A stretch of DNA of 64,000 nucleotides, from sequence record MT446420.1. The stretch is one strand, 5' to 3'. The stretch's first letter is position 1. Each line of letters opens with the position of its first letter. Source of the stretch: Escherichia virus TH54. The notes below the pieces were generated by a model. It saw nothing but the letters and a program-made list of their open reading frames with translations. It was not told where the DNA came from and did not search any database. Below, piece after piece: positions 10,251 to 55,591 of the stretch. Made by a program: the position numbers and the translations under genes.

Positions 10251-10550
10251 TTAAAAAGAACCAGAGCCTTTAATTGTGTTCTGGCGACCTTTATTTTCTA
10301 ATTCAGAATGGTCGATTTCGTATGCTTGTGCTACACCAAAGGCCTTTTTAACTTTAGCTAAAGAACCTTTAGATGTAACAATATTAAAAGTATTACCTTT
10401 AGTAAAATCAACCAAATCCACTTGTACACCCTGTTTACCGAGGCTTGCTACAATAGCATCAACATATTGTTGGTCTAAATTACCCTGAACCCCAATTTGA
10501 AATGCTTTAGGAGCTTTGACTTCAGTAATAAATTCTTGATAAGTTTTCAT
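10251..10550 (-). CDS. internal-protein-like, N-terminal capsid targeting sequence
   Basis: 99 aa starting MKTYQEFITE, matching the conserved CTS of T4 IPI/IPII/IPIII. Confidence 0.6.
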   Translation of the reverse strand: MKTYQEFITEVKAPKAFQIGVQGNLDQQYVDAIVASLGKQGVQVDLVDFTKGNTFNIVTSKGSLAKVKKAFGVAQAYEIDHSELENKGRQNTIKGSGSF

Positions 10551-10606: not shown

Positions 10607-10870
10607 TTATGCTTTACCGCCAGAAACAATACCAAAGGTCTCAAAGTCCCATTCAATATCGTCAACATCAACTTTCTTACCAGCAACCACGAATGCGATT
10701 TCGCGACGTTTTGCATAGGTGACAATTTCTTTACCATCACCACCAAAGAAAGAATAACCATTGCGCTTCATGGTGCCAAAGTCTTCAGCATCACCGGCGA
10801 AGGCGCGGACTTTAAAAGCACCGGTAGGAGCTTTAGCAGATTCAGTAATAAATTCTTGATAAGTTTTCAT
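10607..10870 (-). CDS. internal-protein-like, CTS-bearing
   Basis: 87 aa starting MKTYQEFITE. Confidence 0.6.
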   Translation of the reverse strand: MKTYQEFITESAKAPTGAFKVRAFAGDAEDFGTMKRNGYSFFGGDGKEIVTYAKRREIAFVVAGKKVDVDDIEWDFETFGIVSGGKA

Positions 10871-10883
10871 AATGTCTCTTTAA

Positions 10884-11198
10884 TTACTCTTTAGGGAAAT
10901 CACGCAAAAATGCATCATAAAGTTTATTACCAATGCGACGGAATGCTTTTGCCGCATGAACGTTATCCGGATTTGCAATTTTAATCTGCATTACATGACT
11001 ACCAGCCCATGATTTGGCTTCATCATAATAGCCTTTAATTTCTTTAATAGTCTTACGTTTTCCACCAGGGCCATCAACAGTAATTTTCCACGAACCCGTG
11101 CTCGTTTCACTTGGTGGGGTTAATTGTTCAATCCAGACATAACCACCTTCAACACGTTTTTGGGTAGATTCAGTAATAAATTCTTGATAAGTTTTCAT
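10884..11198 (-). CDS. internal-protein-like, CTS-bearing
   Basis: 105 aa from internal Met MKTYQEFITESTQKR; promoter and SD precede this Met. Confidence 0.55.
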   Translation of the reverse strand: MKTYQEFITESTQKRVEGGYVWIEQLTPPSETSTGSWKITVDGPGGKRKTIKEIKGYYDEAKSWAGSHVMQIKIANPDNVHAAKAFRRIGNKLYDAFLRDFPKE

Positions 11199-21100: not shown

Positions 21101-21484
21101 TTATCCGCGAGCGAATGCCATTGCAGCGCGTTCGTTGGCACGGTCGGTGATGTTCAAGAATTTATCACGAGCGATTTCGATTGGAGCGCCAACCCAGTCA
21201 GCAGCACCATTACCCGGAGACTGTTTAGGACGGACCATATAAGTCGAAACTTTGGAACCGGCTAGTTTGGCACCTGGTGCCGCGGCATTTTTAACGTCTT
21301 TGGCTTTGATGCCAAATCCAGTTACGATACCCCAAGAAACGCCATTAACTGGTTTCTTGAACATAACACGGTCACCAATTGAAACACCAGCTTTTTCTGG
21401 AGCCACTAAAGAAAATTTACCAGCTTCAGTCAGTACGGATTCGGTGATGGTATTGCGATTTAAAAATTCTGCATATGTAAGCAT
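21101..21484 (-). CDS. hypothetical protein, possibly late-expressed
   Basis: 127-aa ORF; exact TATAAATA about 30 nt upstream on minus strand; terminator downstream. Confidence 0.45.
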   Translation of the reverse strand: MLTYAEFLNRNTITESVLTEAGKFSLVAPEKAGVSIGDRVMFKKPVNGVSWGIVTGFGIKAKDVKNAAAPGAKLAGSKVSTYMVRPKQSPGNGAADWVGAPIEIARDKFLNITDRANERAAMAFARG

Positions 21485-21515: not shown

Positions 21516-21523
21516 TATTTATA
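21516..21523 (-). promoter_or_regulatory. late promoter TATAAATA on minus strand
   Basis: exact T4 late-promoter octamer upstream of ORF 21101-21484. Confidence 0.4.
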
Positions 21524-21978: not shown

Positions 21979-22055
21979 TGGTCGGGGTGGTGGGATTCTA
22001 ACCCACAACCTACGGTTTAGAAGACCGTTGCTCTATACAATTGAGCTACACCCCG
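21979..22055 (-). tRNA. tRNA-Arg (anticodon UCU)
   Basis: hand-folded cloverleaf: acceptor CGGGGTG/CACCCCG, D arm GCTC/GAGC, anticodon loop CTTCTAA, T arm GTGGG/CCCAC, 3' ACCA; ends +/- 2 nt. Confidence 0.8.
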
Positions 22056-22057
22056 GG

Positions 22058-22131
22058 TGGCCCCATCCGGACTTGAACCGGAAACCTGCCAGTTATGAGC
22101 CGGATGCTCTAACCAATTGAGCTACAGGGCC
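22058..22131 (-). tRNA. tRNA with CAU anticodon, probably tRNA-Ile (AUA-decoding) rather than Met
   Basis: acceptor GGCCCTG/TGGGGCC with two G-U pairs, anticodon loop CTCATAA, T arm TCCGG/CCGGA; no encoded CCA. Confidence 0.7.
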
Positions 22132-23390: not shown

Positions 23391-23576
23391 TTACTCACCT
23401 TTGGAGATTTTATCCATAACAAAAGAGATTGAACCAATTAAAAATGCAACTACTAAAGAGATTATATTCTCAGAAGTTGAAAGCATATTCAACATAAAGC
23501 CAGCAAACATGCTAAAACCAAAAGCGGTAACAGCAACAAGGGCAGTAACATTTCTAATTAATTCGCAACGTTTCAT
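23391..23576 (-). CDS. small membrane protein, 2 TM
   Basis: 61 aa, hydrophobic (VTALVAVTAFGFSMFAGFML; SLVVAFLIGSISFV). Confidence 0.4.
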   Translation of the reverse strand: MKRCELIRNVTALVAVTAFGFSMFAGFMLNMLSTSENIISLVVAFLIGSISFVMDKISKGE

Positions 23577-23579
23577 TTT

Positions 23580-23633
23580 ATTCTCCTCAGTAGTTGATGG
23601 GATAATTATACGCTATCCCATTCAAATGTACAC
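23580..23633 (-). promoter_or_regulatory. early promoter (-35 GTGTAC, -10 TATAAT inside GGGATAG inverted repeat)
   Basis: minus strand GTGTACAtttgaatgggatagcgTATAATtatccc. Confidence 0.55.
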
Positions 23634-23888
23634 TTATTTTTTAGGGATACGATAGTAACGCATCTCAACATCTTTCTGCTTGTGCCACTTTTTGATAAGG
23701 TCTTCAGAACCTTTAATGGTAACGATGTCATAGCGACCATCATGCGATACTTCAGCACTTAACTGCATGAAGTTGTCTAATGAACGGCGGAATTCTTCAT
23801 TAGAAAAACTGCCACGCGGGGAACCAACATAAGCAAACTCAACTTTTGCATCTGCGGCTTCGTTAATAAATTCTTGATAAGTTTTCAT
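23634..23888 (-). CDS. internal-protein-like, CTS-bearing
   Basis: 84 aa starting MKTYQEFINE. Confidence 0.6.
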   Translation of the reverse strand: MKTYQEFINEAADAKVEFAYVGSPRGSFSNEEFRRSLDNFMQLSAEVSHDGRYDIVTIKGSEDLIKKWHKQKDVEMRYYRIPKK

Positions 23889-23889
23889 T

Positions 23890-23945
23890 AGTAGCTCCAG
23901 TAGTTGATGGGATAATTATACTGCAACTATCCCATCGCGTACATT
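23890..23945 (-). promoter_or_regulatory. early promoter (-35 ATGTAC, -10 TATAAT inside GGGATAG inverted repeat)
   Basis: same architecture as 23580-23633. Confidence 0.5.
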
Positions 23946-24243
23946 ACATTTTTGAACCACGAATTACACCATAAGCGGCGAAGTCGTCAGAAATATCTTT
24001 AGGAGAGTTCTTACCAGTTTCAATGAAGGCAATGCTTGACTTCTGACTAAAAGAGGTAATTTTGTTATAGTTGGAGTCAAGGAAGGTATAACCATTTTTA
24101 CGCAGCTGGTCAAAGTCTTCAGCGTCGCCTTTACCTTTGAAGTCAACCCATTTGTAGGTGTTTTTCTTCTGAAGGCCCAGAGGCCAGGTTTTTGCTTCTG
24201 CCAGGTAATTGTTTTCTACCAAAAATTCATGAAAAGTTTGCAT
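23944..24243 (-). CDS. internal-protein-like, divergent CTS
   Basis: 99 aa starting MQTFHEFLVE. Confidence 0.5.
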   Translation of the reverse strand: MQTFHEFLVENNYLAEAKTWPLGLQKKNTYKWVDFKGKGDAEDFDQLRKNGYTFLDSNYNKITSFSQKSSIAFIETGKNSPKDISDDFAAYGVIRGSKM

Positions 24244-24251
24244 TTGAAATC

Positions 24252-24524
24252 CTATTTTAGATAAATTGCATATTTTTTATAACCAGCCGTCTCATGACGG
24301 AGACCCTTGTCATTGGCAAAACGCTCAATGTTATTAATTTGGTTCTGGTCAAGTTCTGAAATGTCAAACGCGAAAAAGTTGCGTTTGTTGCCAATTGTTA
24401 TATGGTCAGTTAAGTCAATGCTATACAGGTGATTGATATTGTCAATCATAGCTTTGACTGCTTTACTAATTTTTACTTCTTCATTCAGTTGGGACTCGTT
24501 GAAAAATTCATTGAAAGTTTTCAT
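24252..24524 (-). CDS. internal-protein-like, divergent CTS
   Basis: 90 aa starting MKTFNEFFNE. Confidence 0.5.
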   Translation of the reverse strand: MKTFNEFFNESQLNEEVKISKAVKAMIDNINHLYSIDLTDHITIGNKRNFFAFDISELDQNQINNIERFANDKGLRHETAGYKKYAIYLK

Positions 24525-24532
24525 AAGAAACC

Positions 24533-24865
24533 TTATTTATAAAGTTTTGCCAGTTCTTTACGTCCGCGAGCAGACATAATAAATTGTTCATCGCCAATTT
24601 TAAAATAAGCCATACCGCCGTCAACAGCGATACCAATTTCTTTAGTACCTTCTTTGCCTTTCCACTTGCCACCAGATTTCAGGACAGCTTCAACTGCAGC
24701 TTTGGAATATTTGGACGTTTGAAAACGTTCATTACCAATCTGAAAGAAAACACCATCTGCATTTTTGGTTAAACCAAATTTCAGAGAGCCTTCACTATCA
24801 TCAATTGATTTGGTCTCATTGATGGCGGATTCGGCTAAAAACTCGTTGTAAGTCTTGATGTTCAT
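24533..24865 (-). CDS. internal-protein-like (ipI locus position)
   Basis: 110 aa from MNIKTYNEFLAE; immediately upstream of 57B as ipI is in T4. Confidence 0.55.
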   Translation of the reverse strand: MNIKTYNEFLAESAINETKSIDDSEGSLKFGLTKNADGVFFQIGNERFQTSKYSKAAVEAVLKSGGKWKGKEGTKEIGIAVDGGMAYFKIGDEQFIMSARGRKELAKLYK

Positions 24866-24867
24866 TT

Positions 24868-24925
24868 TAACTCCGTTTGTTCGTTGGTGTAGGAACATAA
24901 TACTGCACCTACACTCATTTGTACA

Positions 24926-24927
<2 letters not shown>
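24868..24927 (-). promoter_or_regulatory. early promoter (-35 GTGTAC, -10 TATTAT inside GTGTAGG inverted repeat)
   Basis: minus strand GTGTACAaatgagtgtaggtgcagTATTATgttcctacac. Confidence 0.5.
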
Positions 24928-25613
<686 letters not shown>

Positions 25614-53674: not shown

Positions 53675-54102
53675 TGTTTATTATCCCTGATGATTACGAA
53701 TTAACTCTTGAAAACATCGAAAGTGTTTCCGAAGAAGCTCAGGGACAATTTGATTCATTATCCGAAGCCTTAGAAAAAGACGATATAAATATTATTGTAG
53801 AAAACATGTTTGCAGCCGGTGAATACGAAAAAGCAACGGTTATCGGCGCACTGAATGAAGGTGTTCAGCTTAACGAATTTATCGTTAAACATGTATCGTC
53901 TCGCGGTGAGTTAACCCGCACAAAAGACCTAGCTACTCGTAAGCGTAATGCTTTCCAAACAACTGGTCTTTCTAAAGCTAAACGTCGTCAAATTGCCCGT
54001 CTGGCTACTAAAACAAAAAGAGCAAACCCATCTACGCAAATCAGAGCAGAGCGCAAGCGCAAAAAAGCTCGAGCTAAGCGTAAAGCATTCGGACTTGATT
54101 AA
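53674..54102 (+). CDS. 68: prohead core protein gp68
   Basis: 142 aa, basic C-terminus. Confidence 0.75.
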
Positions 54103-54740
54103 TGGAACAGAAACCAGAGTTACTAATCGAACACTGGGGTCAACCGGGCGAAATTAAAGATGGTGTACCGATGTTGGAATCTCATGATGGTTCCAGCAGC
54201 GGTTTAAAGCCAGGACTTTATATTGAAGGTATTTTCCTACAAGCTGAAGTTGTTAACCGTAATAAACGACTTTATCCTAAACATATTTTGGAAAAAGCCG
54301 TTGCGGACTATATCGCCGAACAGGTTGAAACCAAACAGTCTCTTGGAGAATTAAACCATCCACCTCGTGCAAACGTTGACCCTATGCAGGCGGCAATTAT
54401 TATAGAGGACATGTGGTGGAAAGGGAATGATGTATATGGCCGCGCGCGTATTATCGAAGGCGACCATGGCCCAGGTGATAAACTTGCTGCGAATATAAGA
54501 GCAGGTTGGATTCCTGGTGTATCTAGTCGTGGACTTGGTTCCTTGACTAAATCAGCAAAAGGTTATAGCATCGTTAATGAAGGTTTTAAATTGACGGTTG
54601 GAGTAGACGCAGTATGGGGGCCAAGTGCTCCGGACGCTTGGGTCAAACCAAAGCAGATTACAGAATCACAAACGGCAGTTGCCGATACCAGTGCCGATGA
54701 CGCCTTTATGGCTCTCGCAGAGGCTTTAAAGACGTTATAA
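54102..54740 (+). CDS. 21: prohead core protease gp21
   Basis: 212 aa. Confidence 0.9.
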   Translation: MEQKPELLIEHWGQPGEIKDGVPMLESHDGSSSGLKPGLYIEGIFLQAEVVNRNKRLYPKHILEKAVADYIAEQVETKQSLGELNHPPRANVDPMQAAIIIEDMWWKGNDVYGRARIIEGDHGPGDKLAANIRAGWIPGVSSRGLGSLTKSAKGYSIVNEGFKLTVGVDAVWGPSAPDAWVKPKQITESQTAVADTSADDAFMALAEALKTL

Positions 54741-54772: not shown

Positions 54773-55591
54773 ATGCTTAAAGAACAACTCATTTCTGAAG
54801 CTCAGAATATCGATGCTTCCGTTGCTCTTGATAGTATTTTCGAATCAGTTAATTTGTCCCCGGAAGCGAAAGCTACCTTCGGCACTGTATTCGAAGCTAC
54901 CGTCAAGCAACACGCCATCAAACTGGCAGAATCTCACATTCACGCCATCGCTGAAAAAGCTGAAGAAGAAGTCGAAAAGAATAAAGAAGAAGCCGACGAA
55001 AAAGCAGAGAAAAAACTGAAAGAATCTGCAGCTAAATTCCTGGACCACGTTGCTAAAGAATGGCTCGCTGAAAATAAACTGGCTGTCGACCGTGGCATTA
55101 AAGCCGACCTGTTCGAATCCATGTTCACCGGCATGAAAGAACTGTTCGTTGAGCACAACGTTGTTGTTCCAGAAGAATCTGTCGATGTTGTTGCAGAAAT
55201 GCAGGAAGAACTGGCTGAACAGAAAGAAGAAACCGCTAATCTGTTCGAAGAAGTTGCTAAGCGTGATGCTTATATCAATTATGTCCAACGTGAAGTTGCG
55301 TTGACTGAAGCGACTAAAGACCTGACTGAATCTCAAAAAGAAAAAGTTGGTTCTCTGGTAGAAGGCATGGAATACTCTGATGCATTCGGTACCAAAATTG
55401 GCGCTATCGTTGAAATGGTTAAAGGTCAGGTAGAAGCCACCGACAAACCAATCACCGAAGCCGCTATAAATAAAAATGTAGACGATGCTGCGGCACTGAA
55501 TTACATTTCAGAAGCAGTTGAAGAAAAAGGCACCAAGCCTACCCTGTCCTTTGCGGACTTGTCTGCTCTCGCAGCATCACGAATTTCTTAA
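54773..55591 (+). CDS. 22: prohead core scaffold protein gp22
   Basis: 272 aa, highly helical and acidic. Confidence 0.85.
   Translation: MLKEQLISEAQNIDASVALDSIFESVNLSPEAKATFGTVFEATVKQHAIKLAESHIHAIAEKAEEEVEKNKEEADEKAEKKLKESAAKFLDHVAKEWLAENKLAVDRGIKADLFESMFTGMKELFVEHNVVVPEESVDVVAEMQEELAEQKEETANLFEEVAKRDAYINYVQREVALTEATKDLTESQKEKVGSLVEGMEYSDAFGTKIGAIVEMVKGQVEATDKPITEAAINKNVDDAAALNYISEAVEEKGTKPTLSFADLSALAASRIS

Follow-up and report, generated by a model that had tools for sequence, protein, structure and literature searches.

An expanded ipI locus in a Gaprivervirus phage encodes four candidate CTS-tagged internal head proteins

Between gene 57B and trna.4, T4 carries only ipI, whereas the DNA analysed here carries four small genes in the same slot, which raises the question of what kind of proteins such an expanded locus encodes. 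The window, that is, the whole 64-kb stretch under analysis, comes from a T4-like coliphage of the genus Gaprivervirus (VR7/SP18-like, about 97% identity to EAWsc9). Its gene order, 1-57A-57B-[A B C D]-trna.4-trna.3, corresponds to 1-57A-57B-ipI-trna.4-trna.3 in T4, so that the assignment of the locus to the ipI slot in the initial annotation is confirmed. The left anchor of the locus is the conserved gene 57B (24926..25381, minus strand), which encodes the Acb1 anti-CBASS phosphodiesterase (Pfam Acb1, E 1.5e-59) and occupies the same position as 57B of T4. The conserved right anchor, trna.4 (23391..23576, minus strand), encodes a small hydrophobic protein of 61 aa (phrog_1692, E 7e-34); it bears this name in both VR7 and T4, and its counterpart in SP18 is annotated as a predicted membrane protein. 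The four genes had been described as lying upstream of 57B, which is correct in plus-strand coordinates only; in the direction of transcription they are downstream of it.

The four small ORFs announced in the initial annotation are indeed present on the minus strand with the N-termini given there. Gene A (24533..24865, 110 aa, phrog_3966) begins with MNIKTYNEFLAE, followed by SAINE; gene B (24252..24524, 90 aa, Ip9 family, phrog_7673) with MKTFNEFFNE, followed by SQLNE; gene C (23944..24243, 99 aa, phrog_2667) with MQTFHEFLVE, followed by NNYLAE; and gene D (23634..23888, 84 aa), a diverged member of the Ip6 family in the variable promoter-distal slot, with MKTYQEFINE. Gaps of 8 nt separate A from B and B from C, and Shine-Dalgarno-like sequences are found 5-8 nt ahead of each ATG. 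The mechanical ORF of gene A extends to an ATG at 24898. Since this codon lies inside the promoter -10 and a GGAG precedes the ATG at 24865 by 5 nt, the latter was taken as the start. The plus-strand ORFs across the region do not exceed 62 aa, mostly remain below 50 aa, and none of them has support.

All four proteins open with a peptide, x-T-[YF]-x-E-F-[LIF]-x-E, that resembles a capsid targeting sequence (CTS). When the 64-kb window is translated in six frames, the core motif T[YF]xEF occurs eight times, in 8/8 cases at an ORF start, 2-4 residues past the Met opening a minus-strand ORF; none of these ORFs is shorter than 84 aa. Among frames that begin with Met and reach 60 aa or more, 8 of 528 have it, and in each of 200 shuffles none does; its frequency is far beyond chance. 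Three of these genes form a first array, whose starts are confirmed at 11198, 10870 and 10550. The initial annotation had counted seven candidate injected proteins over both arrays; this count is right, and an eighth CTS-bearing candidate is located at 21104-21484. All seven array genes have T3, E6, F7 and E10, with Y or F at position 4 and I, L or F at position 8. In the CTS of T4, the aromatic residue 4 and Phe7 are critical for targeting, the hydrophobic residue 8 and Glu10 for processing, and the cleavage motif of gp21 is L/I-X-E (PMC9026906). The codon table of A-D shows that all four keep the aromatic residue 4, Phe7, the hydrophobic residue 8 and Glu10, which bears out the earlier description of their N-termini as versions of the CTS. 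The targeting residues are Y4/F7 in D and F4/F7 in B and C; in A, where two additional residues precede the CTS and the ancestral ATG is now ATC, Y and F are found in the same register after this extension. Past the first ~10-20 residues the bodies of A-D are mutually unrelated.

Such diverse internal proteins (IPs) that share only a conserved CTS represent the T4-type pattern (PMC3012670). Their occurrence at two variable loci flanked by such cassettes, 57B-trna.4 and the one next to e/denV, goes back to Repoila 1994, which PMC2839356 summarises. IPI-III of T4 offer the closest comparison. Indeed, A-D occupy the slot type of ipI and have like N-terminal peptides (MKTYQEFIAE in IPII and IPIII, MKTFKEF...ITE in IPI) with the same L/I-x-E cleavage motif; the proteins are small and, B apart, predicted to be basic once processed, both phages have the gp21/gp22 machinery, and T4 ipI is flanked by the same early-promoter/stem-loop element. 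On the other hand, there are four genes here and one in T4, A has its 2-residue extension before the CTS, B combines Phe8 with a near-neutral mature form, and B and C, unlike ipI, are without a cassette of their own. Homology of A-D to IPI, IPII and IPIII beyond the CTS was sought and rejected; with IPI*, BLASTP matches cover only the first ~7 residues. Likewise, the Pfam scan returned no IPI-family match, and IPI* was not among the top fold-search matches of A and B. We consider it likely that A-D make up an expanded Gaprivervirus ipI locus, in which each gene encodes a small internal head protein composed of an N-terminal CTS of ~10-17 residues and an unrelated body; their packaging, cleavage, injection, targets and promoter use we infer largely by analogy. 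CTS-tagged internal proteins at a variable anti-defence locus are a textbook, already described kind, and the present locus is an ordinary new instance of it.

The head-assembly genes gp67, gp21, gp22 (scaffold) and gp23 are all found within the same window, with the gp21 prohead protease at 54102-54740 (Peptidase_S77, E 6.6e-102) and the gp22 scaffolding core protein at 54773-55591 (T4_CASP, E 4.8e-91). As with IPI-III of T4, the CTS would dock each protein on the gp22 core during prohead assembly, and gp21 would then cut after L/I-x-E. Two such sites exist in A (LAE12, INE17) and in C (LVE10, LAE16), either of which may be used, and one in D (INE10). Gene B has Phe, not Ile or Leu, at the processing position 8, and its FNE10 is non-canonical; a canonical site, LNE15, follows further on and would be the expected one, with FNE10 as the other option. 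With the cuts set at residue 12 in A, 6 in B and C and 10 in D, the predicted mature forms have 74-98 aa, that of A being the one of about 98 aa. Mature proteins of about this size would remain in the head with the DNA and be injected along with it, and such a delivery would allow them to act before any phage gene is expressed. Their likeliest targets would be host nucleases that attack modified phage DNA.

How these genes may be transcribed is partly indicated by the elements around them. The pattern TGTAC-N16/17-TAT(A/T)AT with an embedded stem-loop was used to search for early promoters, and six T4-early-type matches are present in the window against 0.58 expected. Contrary to the claim that each gene has its own promoter cassette, cassettes precede only A, D and trna.4; directly upstream of B and C there is no promoter/stem-loop, the 8-nt intergenic gaps simply following the preceding stop codon. 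The promoter match before A (24897..24925, minus strand) consists of TGTACA, 17 nt and TATTAT, with the -10 in the loop of a stem-loop at 24887-24914 (GTGTAGG...CCTACAC); the 70-nt intergenic stretch has a folding energy of -15.2 kcal/mol, and T4 ipI shows the same layout. The promoter match before D (23915..23943, minus strand; TGTACG, 17 nt, TATAAT) lies inside a 13-bp stem-loop at 23906-23936 (GATGGGATAGTTG...TAATTATCCCATC), and the 62-nt intergenic stretch has a folding energy of -17.3 kcal/mol (z -2.6). A near-identical module stands before each variable gene in VR7 and before D in EAWsc9. The third copy, before trna.4 (23605..23632, minus strand; stem-loop 23594-23625), has an exact 24-nt repeat in common with the cassette of D, and T4 has an equivalent cassette ahead of its trna.4.

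These cassettes resemble the PeSLs of RB49/phi1-type phages (Arbiol et al. 2010, PMC2839356; Comeau et al. 2014, PMC4122927), which are likewise short repeats made of an early promoter and a stem-loop, border variable genes and are linked to gene gain, loss and replacement between close relatives. The elements of IP loci have been described as analogues of PeSLs, not homologues, with T4-type early promoters and weaker, AT-rich stems (PMC2839356). The stems found here (GATGGGATA.../GTGTAGG...), with the -10 in or beside the loop, fit this description. Transcription would start from the stem-loop-embedded promoters before A and before D, and A, B and C would form one transcription unit, possibly with a late boost from TATAAATA before B. 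The latter, a match to the T4 late-promoter consensus (24534..24541, minus strand), overlaps the end of the A reading frame, stop codon included (TAT AAA TAA), and its own end lies 9 nt ahead of the B start codon. EAWsc9, VR7 and ECML-359 all conserve it, and the window contains 19 such matches against 5 expected; the one before B could be a by-product of Tyr-Lys-stop coding. Apart from it, the locus has no late-promoter match, so that the sequence does not account for late expression of A and D. The same applies to T4 ipI, which by sequence has an early-type promoter only. The repeated module, comprising promoter, stem-loop, ribosome-binding site and CTS codons, probably provides the homology for recombinational gene swaps at the distal slot.

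The distal slot is where the locus varies. It can be occupied by D, ip5, ip6 or ORF153c and is the sole one that differs between near-identical genomes; D itself is found at 90% identity or more in only 14 records. A gene-by-gene comparison with three Gaprivervirus relatives shows 94-100% conservation for A, B and C. Annotations of B and C as internal head proteins exist in relatives. The families of A, B and C, with 55, 172 and 193 phage records respectively, are spread over several genera. The proposal of lineage-specific effectors is, as regards lineage specificity, retained for the slot of D only, A, B and C being conserved members of widespread families. Its other part, the effector reading, gains support from the homology of D. 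D matches phrog_8111, 'internal virion protein' (E 7e-15), and is 46% identical to bas37_0260 (Ip6; E 4e-17), or 39% without the CTS (E 2e-10). The latter is an ipI-locus protein that inhibits McrBC and carries a packaging signal (preprint 10.1101/2025.11.20.689424). In Bas37 (KarlGJung) its gene is, like D, the last IP gene before trna.4, and the two proteins have near-identical CTSs and homologous bodies; bas37_0260 counts 77 aa against 84 aa for D, whose C-terminal 16 residues are unrelated. This similarity leads to a specific prediction, namely that D inhibits a type IV restriction enzyme. Since the identity outside the CTS is only 39%, the target may differ, and D could act on a type IV enzyme other than McrBC.

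For none of A-D did the Pfam and NCBIfam scans return a match above threshold. B matches phrog_7673, 'internal head protein', over positions 1-90 of 90 (E 1.7e-56) and is a full-length member of the Ip9 family of RB15/RB32-type T-even phages, with 79% identity to RB15 Ip9 and 79-87% to other Ip9 proteins. Most Ip9 members begin with MKTYQEFI[AST]E, whereas the CTS of the Gaprivervirus B has drifted to MKTFNEFFNE. A Kagunavirus siphophage encodes a CTS-less homologue of B (72 aa, 51% identity) with stop codons upstream, at the head of an operon that is made up of small hypothetical genes and divergent from the replication genes; the homology begins at residue 19, just past the predicted cleavage site, and CTS-less forms are present also among metagenomic representatives. 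C matches phrog_2667, 'internal head protein' (E 2e-21), and is a paralogue of a first-array gene, 10607-10870 (33% identity, E 4.5e-16). Its homologue in Morganella phage MP1, gp136 (41% identity), was found in virions by mass spectrometry with 6 peptides and 59% coverage (PMC5384007). Since proteins that are clearly not structural, among them ligase, clamp and dNMP kinase, were detected in the same preparation (PMC5384007), this evidence is supportive, not decisive. In EAWsc9, C is labelled 'homing endonuclease', for which no scan gave support.

Could the N-terminal motif be partly a passenger of recombination, some of the proteins, especially B and A, being early cytoplasmic products made after injection and left unpackaged? 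D and the first-array genes E, F and G indeed have identical DNA over their first 8 codons and similar cassettes upstream, which speaks for it. However, A, B and C have diverged from this shared DNA module and yet keep the CTS residues through synonymous codons (AAG, TAC, GAG), which implies selection on the peptide beyond DNA identity; moreover, B and C have no cassette, so that hitch-hiking with it cannot explain their N-termini. The early-type promoters before A and D would suit early cytoplasmic proteins, but T4 ipI has no other type and IPI is nevertheless packaged and injected (PMC3012670). Relaxed constraint, or tolerance, at the CTS is suggested by the VR7 variants, whose targeting residues include Leu4 in C and Leu7 in B, and Phe8 of B and the extension of A also fit the passenger explanation, as does the CTS-less homologue of B that evidently works from a siphophage genome. 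Against this, distant homologues of A (~52-71% identity) and of B all keep the CTS while their bodies diverge. For instance, MKTY[NQDK][ED]F...E[SA] is found at or near the start of 10/10 aligned homologues of A, one of them with an upstream extension. On balance, we regard this explanation as improbable.

It is also conceivable that the proteins are packaged but serve mainly a structural or charge-neutralising role in the core, as scaffold filler or DNA counter-ions, rather than as host-directed effectors. Once processed as predicted, A, C and D would be basic (pI 9.3, 8.8 and 9.0), as are the T4 IPs, of which ~1000 molecules lie within the DNA packaged by T4 (PMC3012670), and the model of A weakly resembles Whirly-like nucleic-acid-binding folds; mature B, with a pI of 6.3, would not be basic. 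The occurrence of the B body without a CTS in a siphophage, which has a different capsid system, points to a function independent of the T4-type head. Furthermore, the family of D includes a demonstrated McrBC inhibitor, IPI inhibits GmrS/GmrD (PMC3012670) and IpII the fused GmrSD, and the turnover of the distal slot among near-identical genomes is typical of arms-race genes. A mainly structural role seems, all in all, quite improbable. Finally, that A-D are fortuitous ORFs or pseudogenes of a non-coding spacer can practically be dismissed: despite their small size and the lack of an annotation for C or D in some GenBank records, each of the four has a significant PHROG match and full-length homologues of 41-75% identity in other genera, besides Shine-Dalgarno-like sequences and 8-nt gene packing, and AF2 gave compact models for A and B (pLDDT ~78).

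Beyond the reading of A-D as CTS-tagged internal head proteins, a broader proposal can be put forward, though only tentatively and with more doubt than confidence. It holds jointly that the CTS may be a portable delivery tag grafted onto effector domains that circulate among unrelated phages, that phrog_3966 may represent a family of IPs so far not recognised as such, with a Whirly/PUR-like fold in which a four-strand-plus-helix unit is duplicated, and that the ORF at 21104-21484, putatively driven by a late promoter, may be an IP gene outside the two canonical IP loci. phrog_3966, annotated as 'unknown function', comprises A and the first-array gene 10884-11198, and its other members have a canonical MKTYxEF[LI]xE start. 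The AF2 model of A is a duplicated four-strand-plus-helix unit (pLDDT 78.7) with a weak resemblance to MRP1/MRP2 (E 8e-3 to 4e-2, TM 0.53-0.60). We did not adopt a fold assignment for A, since its Foldseek matches in PDB and BFVD, Whirly-like (MRP1/MRP2) or sliding-clamp fragments, were all weak, with E of at least 8e-3, and are to be taken as a lead only; nor do the fold searches support 'profilin', as A is labelled in EAWsc9. For B, the AF2 model compared with PDB by Foldseek (best E 0.04) allowed no assignment, and the Ip9 alignment had no match in a PDB sequence-profile search. The ORF at 21104-21484 has no homologues outside Gaprivervirus in the phage collection and IMG/VR.

To our knowledge, internal proteins alone, among the anti-defence factors of T4-type phages, are delivered ready-made along with the phage DNA, and we know of targets for 3 of the more than 30 described IP variants, namely IPI, IpII and bas37_0260. 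The present locus adds nothing new in principle; it supplies four concrete candidates, including, with A and its first-array relative, a family without internal-protein annotation so far. The tag-less siphophage relative of Ip9 represents a natural control for distinguishing delivery from effector function.

The interval between 57B (24926-25381, minus strand; Pfam Acb1, E 1.5e-59) and trna.4 (23391-23576, minus strand; phrog_1692) contains a single gene, ipI, in T4, whereas four genes occupy it in the window. These genes are arranged head to tail on the minus strand across 23634-24865, namely A (24533-24865, 110 aa, N-terminus MNIKTYNEFLAE), B (24252-24524, 90 aa, MKTFNEFFNE), C (23944-24243, 99 aa, MQTFHEFLVE) and D (23634-23888, 84 aa, MKTYQEFINE). 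Their coordinates and N-termini are as described in the initial annotation, and its placement of four genes with a start resembling a capsid targeting sequence (CTS) at the ipI locus is confirmed by the 57B-trna.4 slot and by the motif at all four ORF starts. These genes lie upstream of 57B in plus-strand coordinates only; in the direction of transcription, 57B directly precedes A, and trna.4 follows D. The window also encodes head machinery, including gp67, the prohead protease gp21 (Peptidase_S77, E 6.6e-102), the gp22 scaffold protein and gp23. It is probable that A-D are packaged, gp21-processed and injected internal proteins (IPs), and our confidence in this reading is higher for C and D than for A and B.

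Six-frame translation of the window yields eight occurrences of the motif T[YF]xEF, each 2-4 residues past the initial Met of a minus-strand ORF 84 aa or longer: A-D, a first array of three genes (starting at 11198, 10870 and 10550) and an ORF starting at 21484. Among the 528 frames of 60 aa or more that begin with Met, 8 contain it, and no hit arose in any of 200 shuffles. The T4 CTS is MKTYQEFIAE (PMC8442874); according to Mullaney and Black (1996), as reported by PMC9026906, residues 4 and 7 matter mainly for targeting and residues 8 and 10 for processing, gp21 cleaving after L/I-X-E (PMC9026906). All seven array genes have T3, E6, F7 and E10, with Y or F at position 4 and I, L or F at position 8. 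B, which carries the Phe at position 8, has a canonical LNE at 13-15, and the majority of Ip9 proteins, the family of B, begin with MKTYQEFI[AST]E. A has an extra Met-Asn before the CTS, then Ile at the initiator-Met position of its homologues; each of the ten homologues aligned has MKTY[NQDK][ED]F...E[SA] at or near the start, one of them with an upstream extension. The DNA of the first eight codons is identical in D and the three first-array genes. In A, B and C it has drifted, while synonymous changes (AAG, TAC, GAG) keep the key residues, which argues for selection on the CTS peptide and not merely for a recombination block. In phage VR7 (L002), the copies of C (2358-2657, MQTLHEF) and B (2666-2938, MKTFNELF) have Leu at CTS positions 4 and 7, respectively, the two reported as most important for T4 targeting.

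The early-promoter pattern TGTAC-N16-18-TATNAT has six matches in the window against 0.58 expected, and half of them lie in the ipI locus: before A (24897-24925), D (23915-23943) and trna.4 (23605-23632), all on the minus strand. In these three cassettes the -10 element sits in the loop of a stem-loop or next to it, and the intergenic regions fold at -15.2, -17.3 and -11.9 kcal/mol, respectively. The same design, composed of GTTTACAT, a stem-loop and then TACTAT, stands upstream of T4 ipI and T4 trna.4. PeSL-like elements at the two variable IP loci were seen by Repoila (1994), as cited by Arbiol et al. (PMC2839356), who describe them as PeSL analogues built on T4 early promoters, their stems being weak and AT-rich, and count more than 30 known IP variants. 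Every variable gene of VR7, and gene D of EAWsc9, has a nearly identical ~85-nt module (promoter, stem-loop, GGAG, CTS codons). On the other hand, a search for a cassette before B and C found none, and both start 8 nt past the preceding stop codon. Upstream of B there is only TATAAATA (24534-24541), overlapping the Tyr-Lys-stop codons of A and conserved in three relatives; it is a putative, unproven late promoter. The initial interpretation, which gave each gene its own promoter cassette, is therefore supported in part: the ipI slot and the CTS-like N-termini stand, but the cassette is found for only two of the four genes, A and D.

By megablast, the region belongs to Gaprivervirus (VR7/SP18-like Tevenvirinae), with EAWsc9 and ECML-359 as top matches (~97% identity). 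Gene-by-gene comparison with VR7, EAWsc9 and ECML-359 shows 94-100% identity for A, B and C, and turnover confined to the promoter-distal slot. The gene order is A-B-C-D in the window, A-B-C-ip5-D in EAWsc9 and A-B-C-ORF153c-ip6 in VR7, whose slot is annotated ip6, ORF153c, ORF154c ('internal head protein' in RefSeq), ip9 and ORF156c; ECML-359 likewise has the additional ip5 between C and D. Upstream of EAWsc9 ip5 (L001 2289-2333), a GGGGATAATTATCCCC hairpin followed by TTTTTAT is terminator-like and not a promoter cassette. Annotation of B and C as internal head proteins already exists in relatives; in the Gaprivervirus records examined, A and D are hypothetical or mislabelled. The locus is thus of a known kind, correctly recognised, and A and D are best described as additions to the known kind of IP. 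The product of 57B being an Acb1 anti-CBASS phosphodiesterase (Pfam), the IP genes directly adjoin another counter-defence gene.

Past the first 10-20 residues, A-D are mutually dissimilar, and comparison with T4 IPI, IPII and IPIII revealed no relatedness. A belongs to phrog_3966 ('unknown function'; 55 records), together with the first-array gene 10884-11198 (minus strand). This family occurs in phages of Escherichia, Shigella, Yersinia, Edwardsiella, Citrobacter, Serratia, Pectobacterium, Salmonella, Erwinia and other hosts, next to 57B in some and to the endolysin gene in others. C belongs to phrog_2667 ('internal head protein'; 193 records), as do the minus-strand first-array genes 10607-10870 (33% identity to C, E 4.5e-16) and 10251-10550, the latter with the same GATGGGATAGTGTATAATTATCC cassette upstream; all three first-array genes are paralogues of second-array genes. 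B is Ip9 (phrog_7673, E 1.7e-56; 79% identical to RB15 Ip9; 172 phage records). For D (phrog_8111, 'internal virion protein'), only 14 records have a copy with at least 90% identity; across most of its length, D shares 41-49% identity with the widespread Ip6 proteins.

A homologue of the Ip9 body is encoded by the Kagunavirus siphophage UTEC10 (PP291582; 72 aa, 51% identical, E 5e-30; window 24255-24479, minus strand, against L006:2504-2722). It aligns to B residues 19-90, with in-frame stops just upstream, and is the first gene in an operon of small hypothetical genes divergent from the replication genes. Siphophages with the tag-less body have genomes of roughly 45 kb. An exhaustive HMMER search recovered members with a tag (MKFNEFLTE..., MKSFKEYLTE...) as well as untagged ones of 66-74 aa; among metagenomic representatives, P0036, P0037 and P0040 are tag-less, and P0035 (MKFNEFLTE) and P0039 (MKSFKEYLTE) carry variant tags. 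Homology begins directly past the predicted gp21 cut. This is how a grafted delivery tag would be expected to look, and it speaks for a role of the Ip9 body that does not depend on T4-type head structure. Ip7 of Escherichia phage OLB35 (P0034) has only the C-terminal ~35 residues in common with Ip9 (80% identity to B) and a different N-terminal half, which points to mosaicism not only between IP genes but also within them.

Fused GmrSD was identified as the target of IpII by Silas et al. (bioRxiv 10.1101/2023.04.06.535777), who noted that a target had until then been known for just one other IP. Phage Bas37 (KarlGJung, MZ501089) carries bas37_0260 at its ipI locus; the phage needs this gene on McrBC-proficient K-12 and becomes sensitive to McrBC when it is deleted, and bas37_0260 has only the N-terminal packaging signal in common with IPI-III (HIDEN-SEQ preprint, 10.1101/2025.11.20.689424). 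This 77-aa gene directly precedes trna.4 and its product is 78% identical to VR7 ip6. Since D is 46% identical to bas37_0260 (E 4e-17), and still 39% (E 2e-10) with the CTS removed, D is by homology a diverged member of a family whose anti-type-IV-restriction function was demonstrated for bas37_0260. Bas37 shares with EAWsc9 the pairing of an ip5-like gene and an Ip6 gene (bas37_0261, bas37_0260). For C, the gene adjoining 57B in Morganella phage MP1 encodes a 96-aa protein starting with MKTFQEFINE and 41% identical to C; from its calculated mass, 11,213 Da, this protein is recognised as gp136 of PMC5384007. There, gp136 was detected in purified virions (six unique peptides, 59% coverage); since obvious non-structural proteins were also in the preparation, this detection is supportive only.

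The AF2 model of A (pLDDT 78.7) has a duplicated four-strand-plus-helix unit, and the repeats GVFFQIGNERFQTS and MAYFKIGDEQFIMS each form part of one such unit. The one informative Foldseek result was a weak similarity to Whirly-like MRP1/MRP2 (E 8e-3 to 4e-2, TM 0.53-0.60), and none of the searches reproduced the 'profilin' label that the EAWsc9 copy bears. B is predicted (pLDDT 78.3) to consist of the CTS helix, a flexible linker and a helix-strand-strand-helix-strand-strand domain, with no significant match in a PDB fold search. IPI* was absent among the top matches of the fold searches with A and B.

The eighth CTS-like ORF (21104-21484, minus strand) encodes 127 aa starting with MLTYAEFLNRNTITE/SVLTE/, an N-terminus resembling the long IPI-type propeptide MKTFKEF...ITE, and its predicted mature pI is 10.1. 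PHROG and Pfam searches gave no family match, and the ORF occurs in 15 Gaprivervirus genomes only, annotated 'hypothetical' in every one. A perfect late-promoter motif TATAAATA (21516-21523, minus strand) ends 31 nt upstream of its ATG. The ORF lies outside both canonical IP loci, about 500 nt downstream of two tRNA genes (21979-22131, minus strand), Arg-TCT and a CAT-anticodon tRNA (Ile2 per the EAWsc9 annotation); these are the only two there, whereas T4 has eight in the corresponding region.
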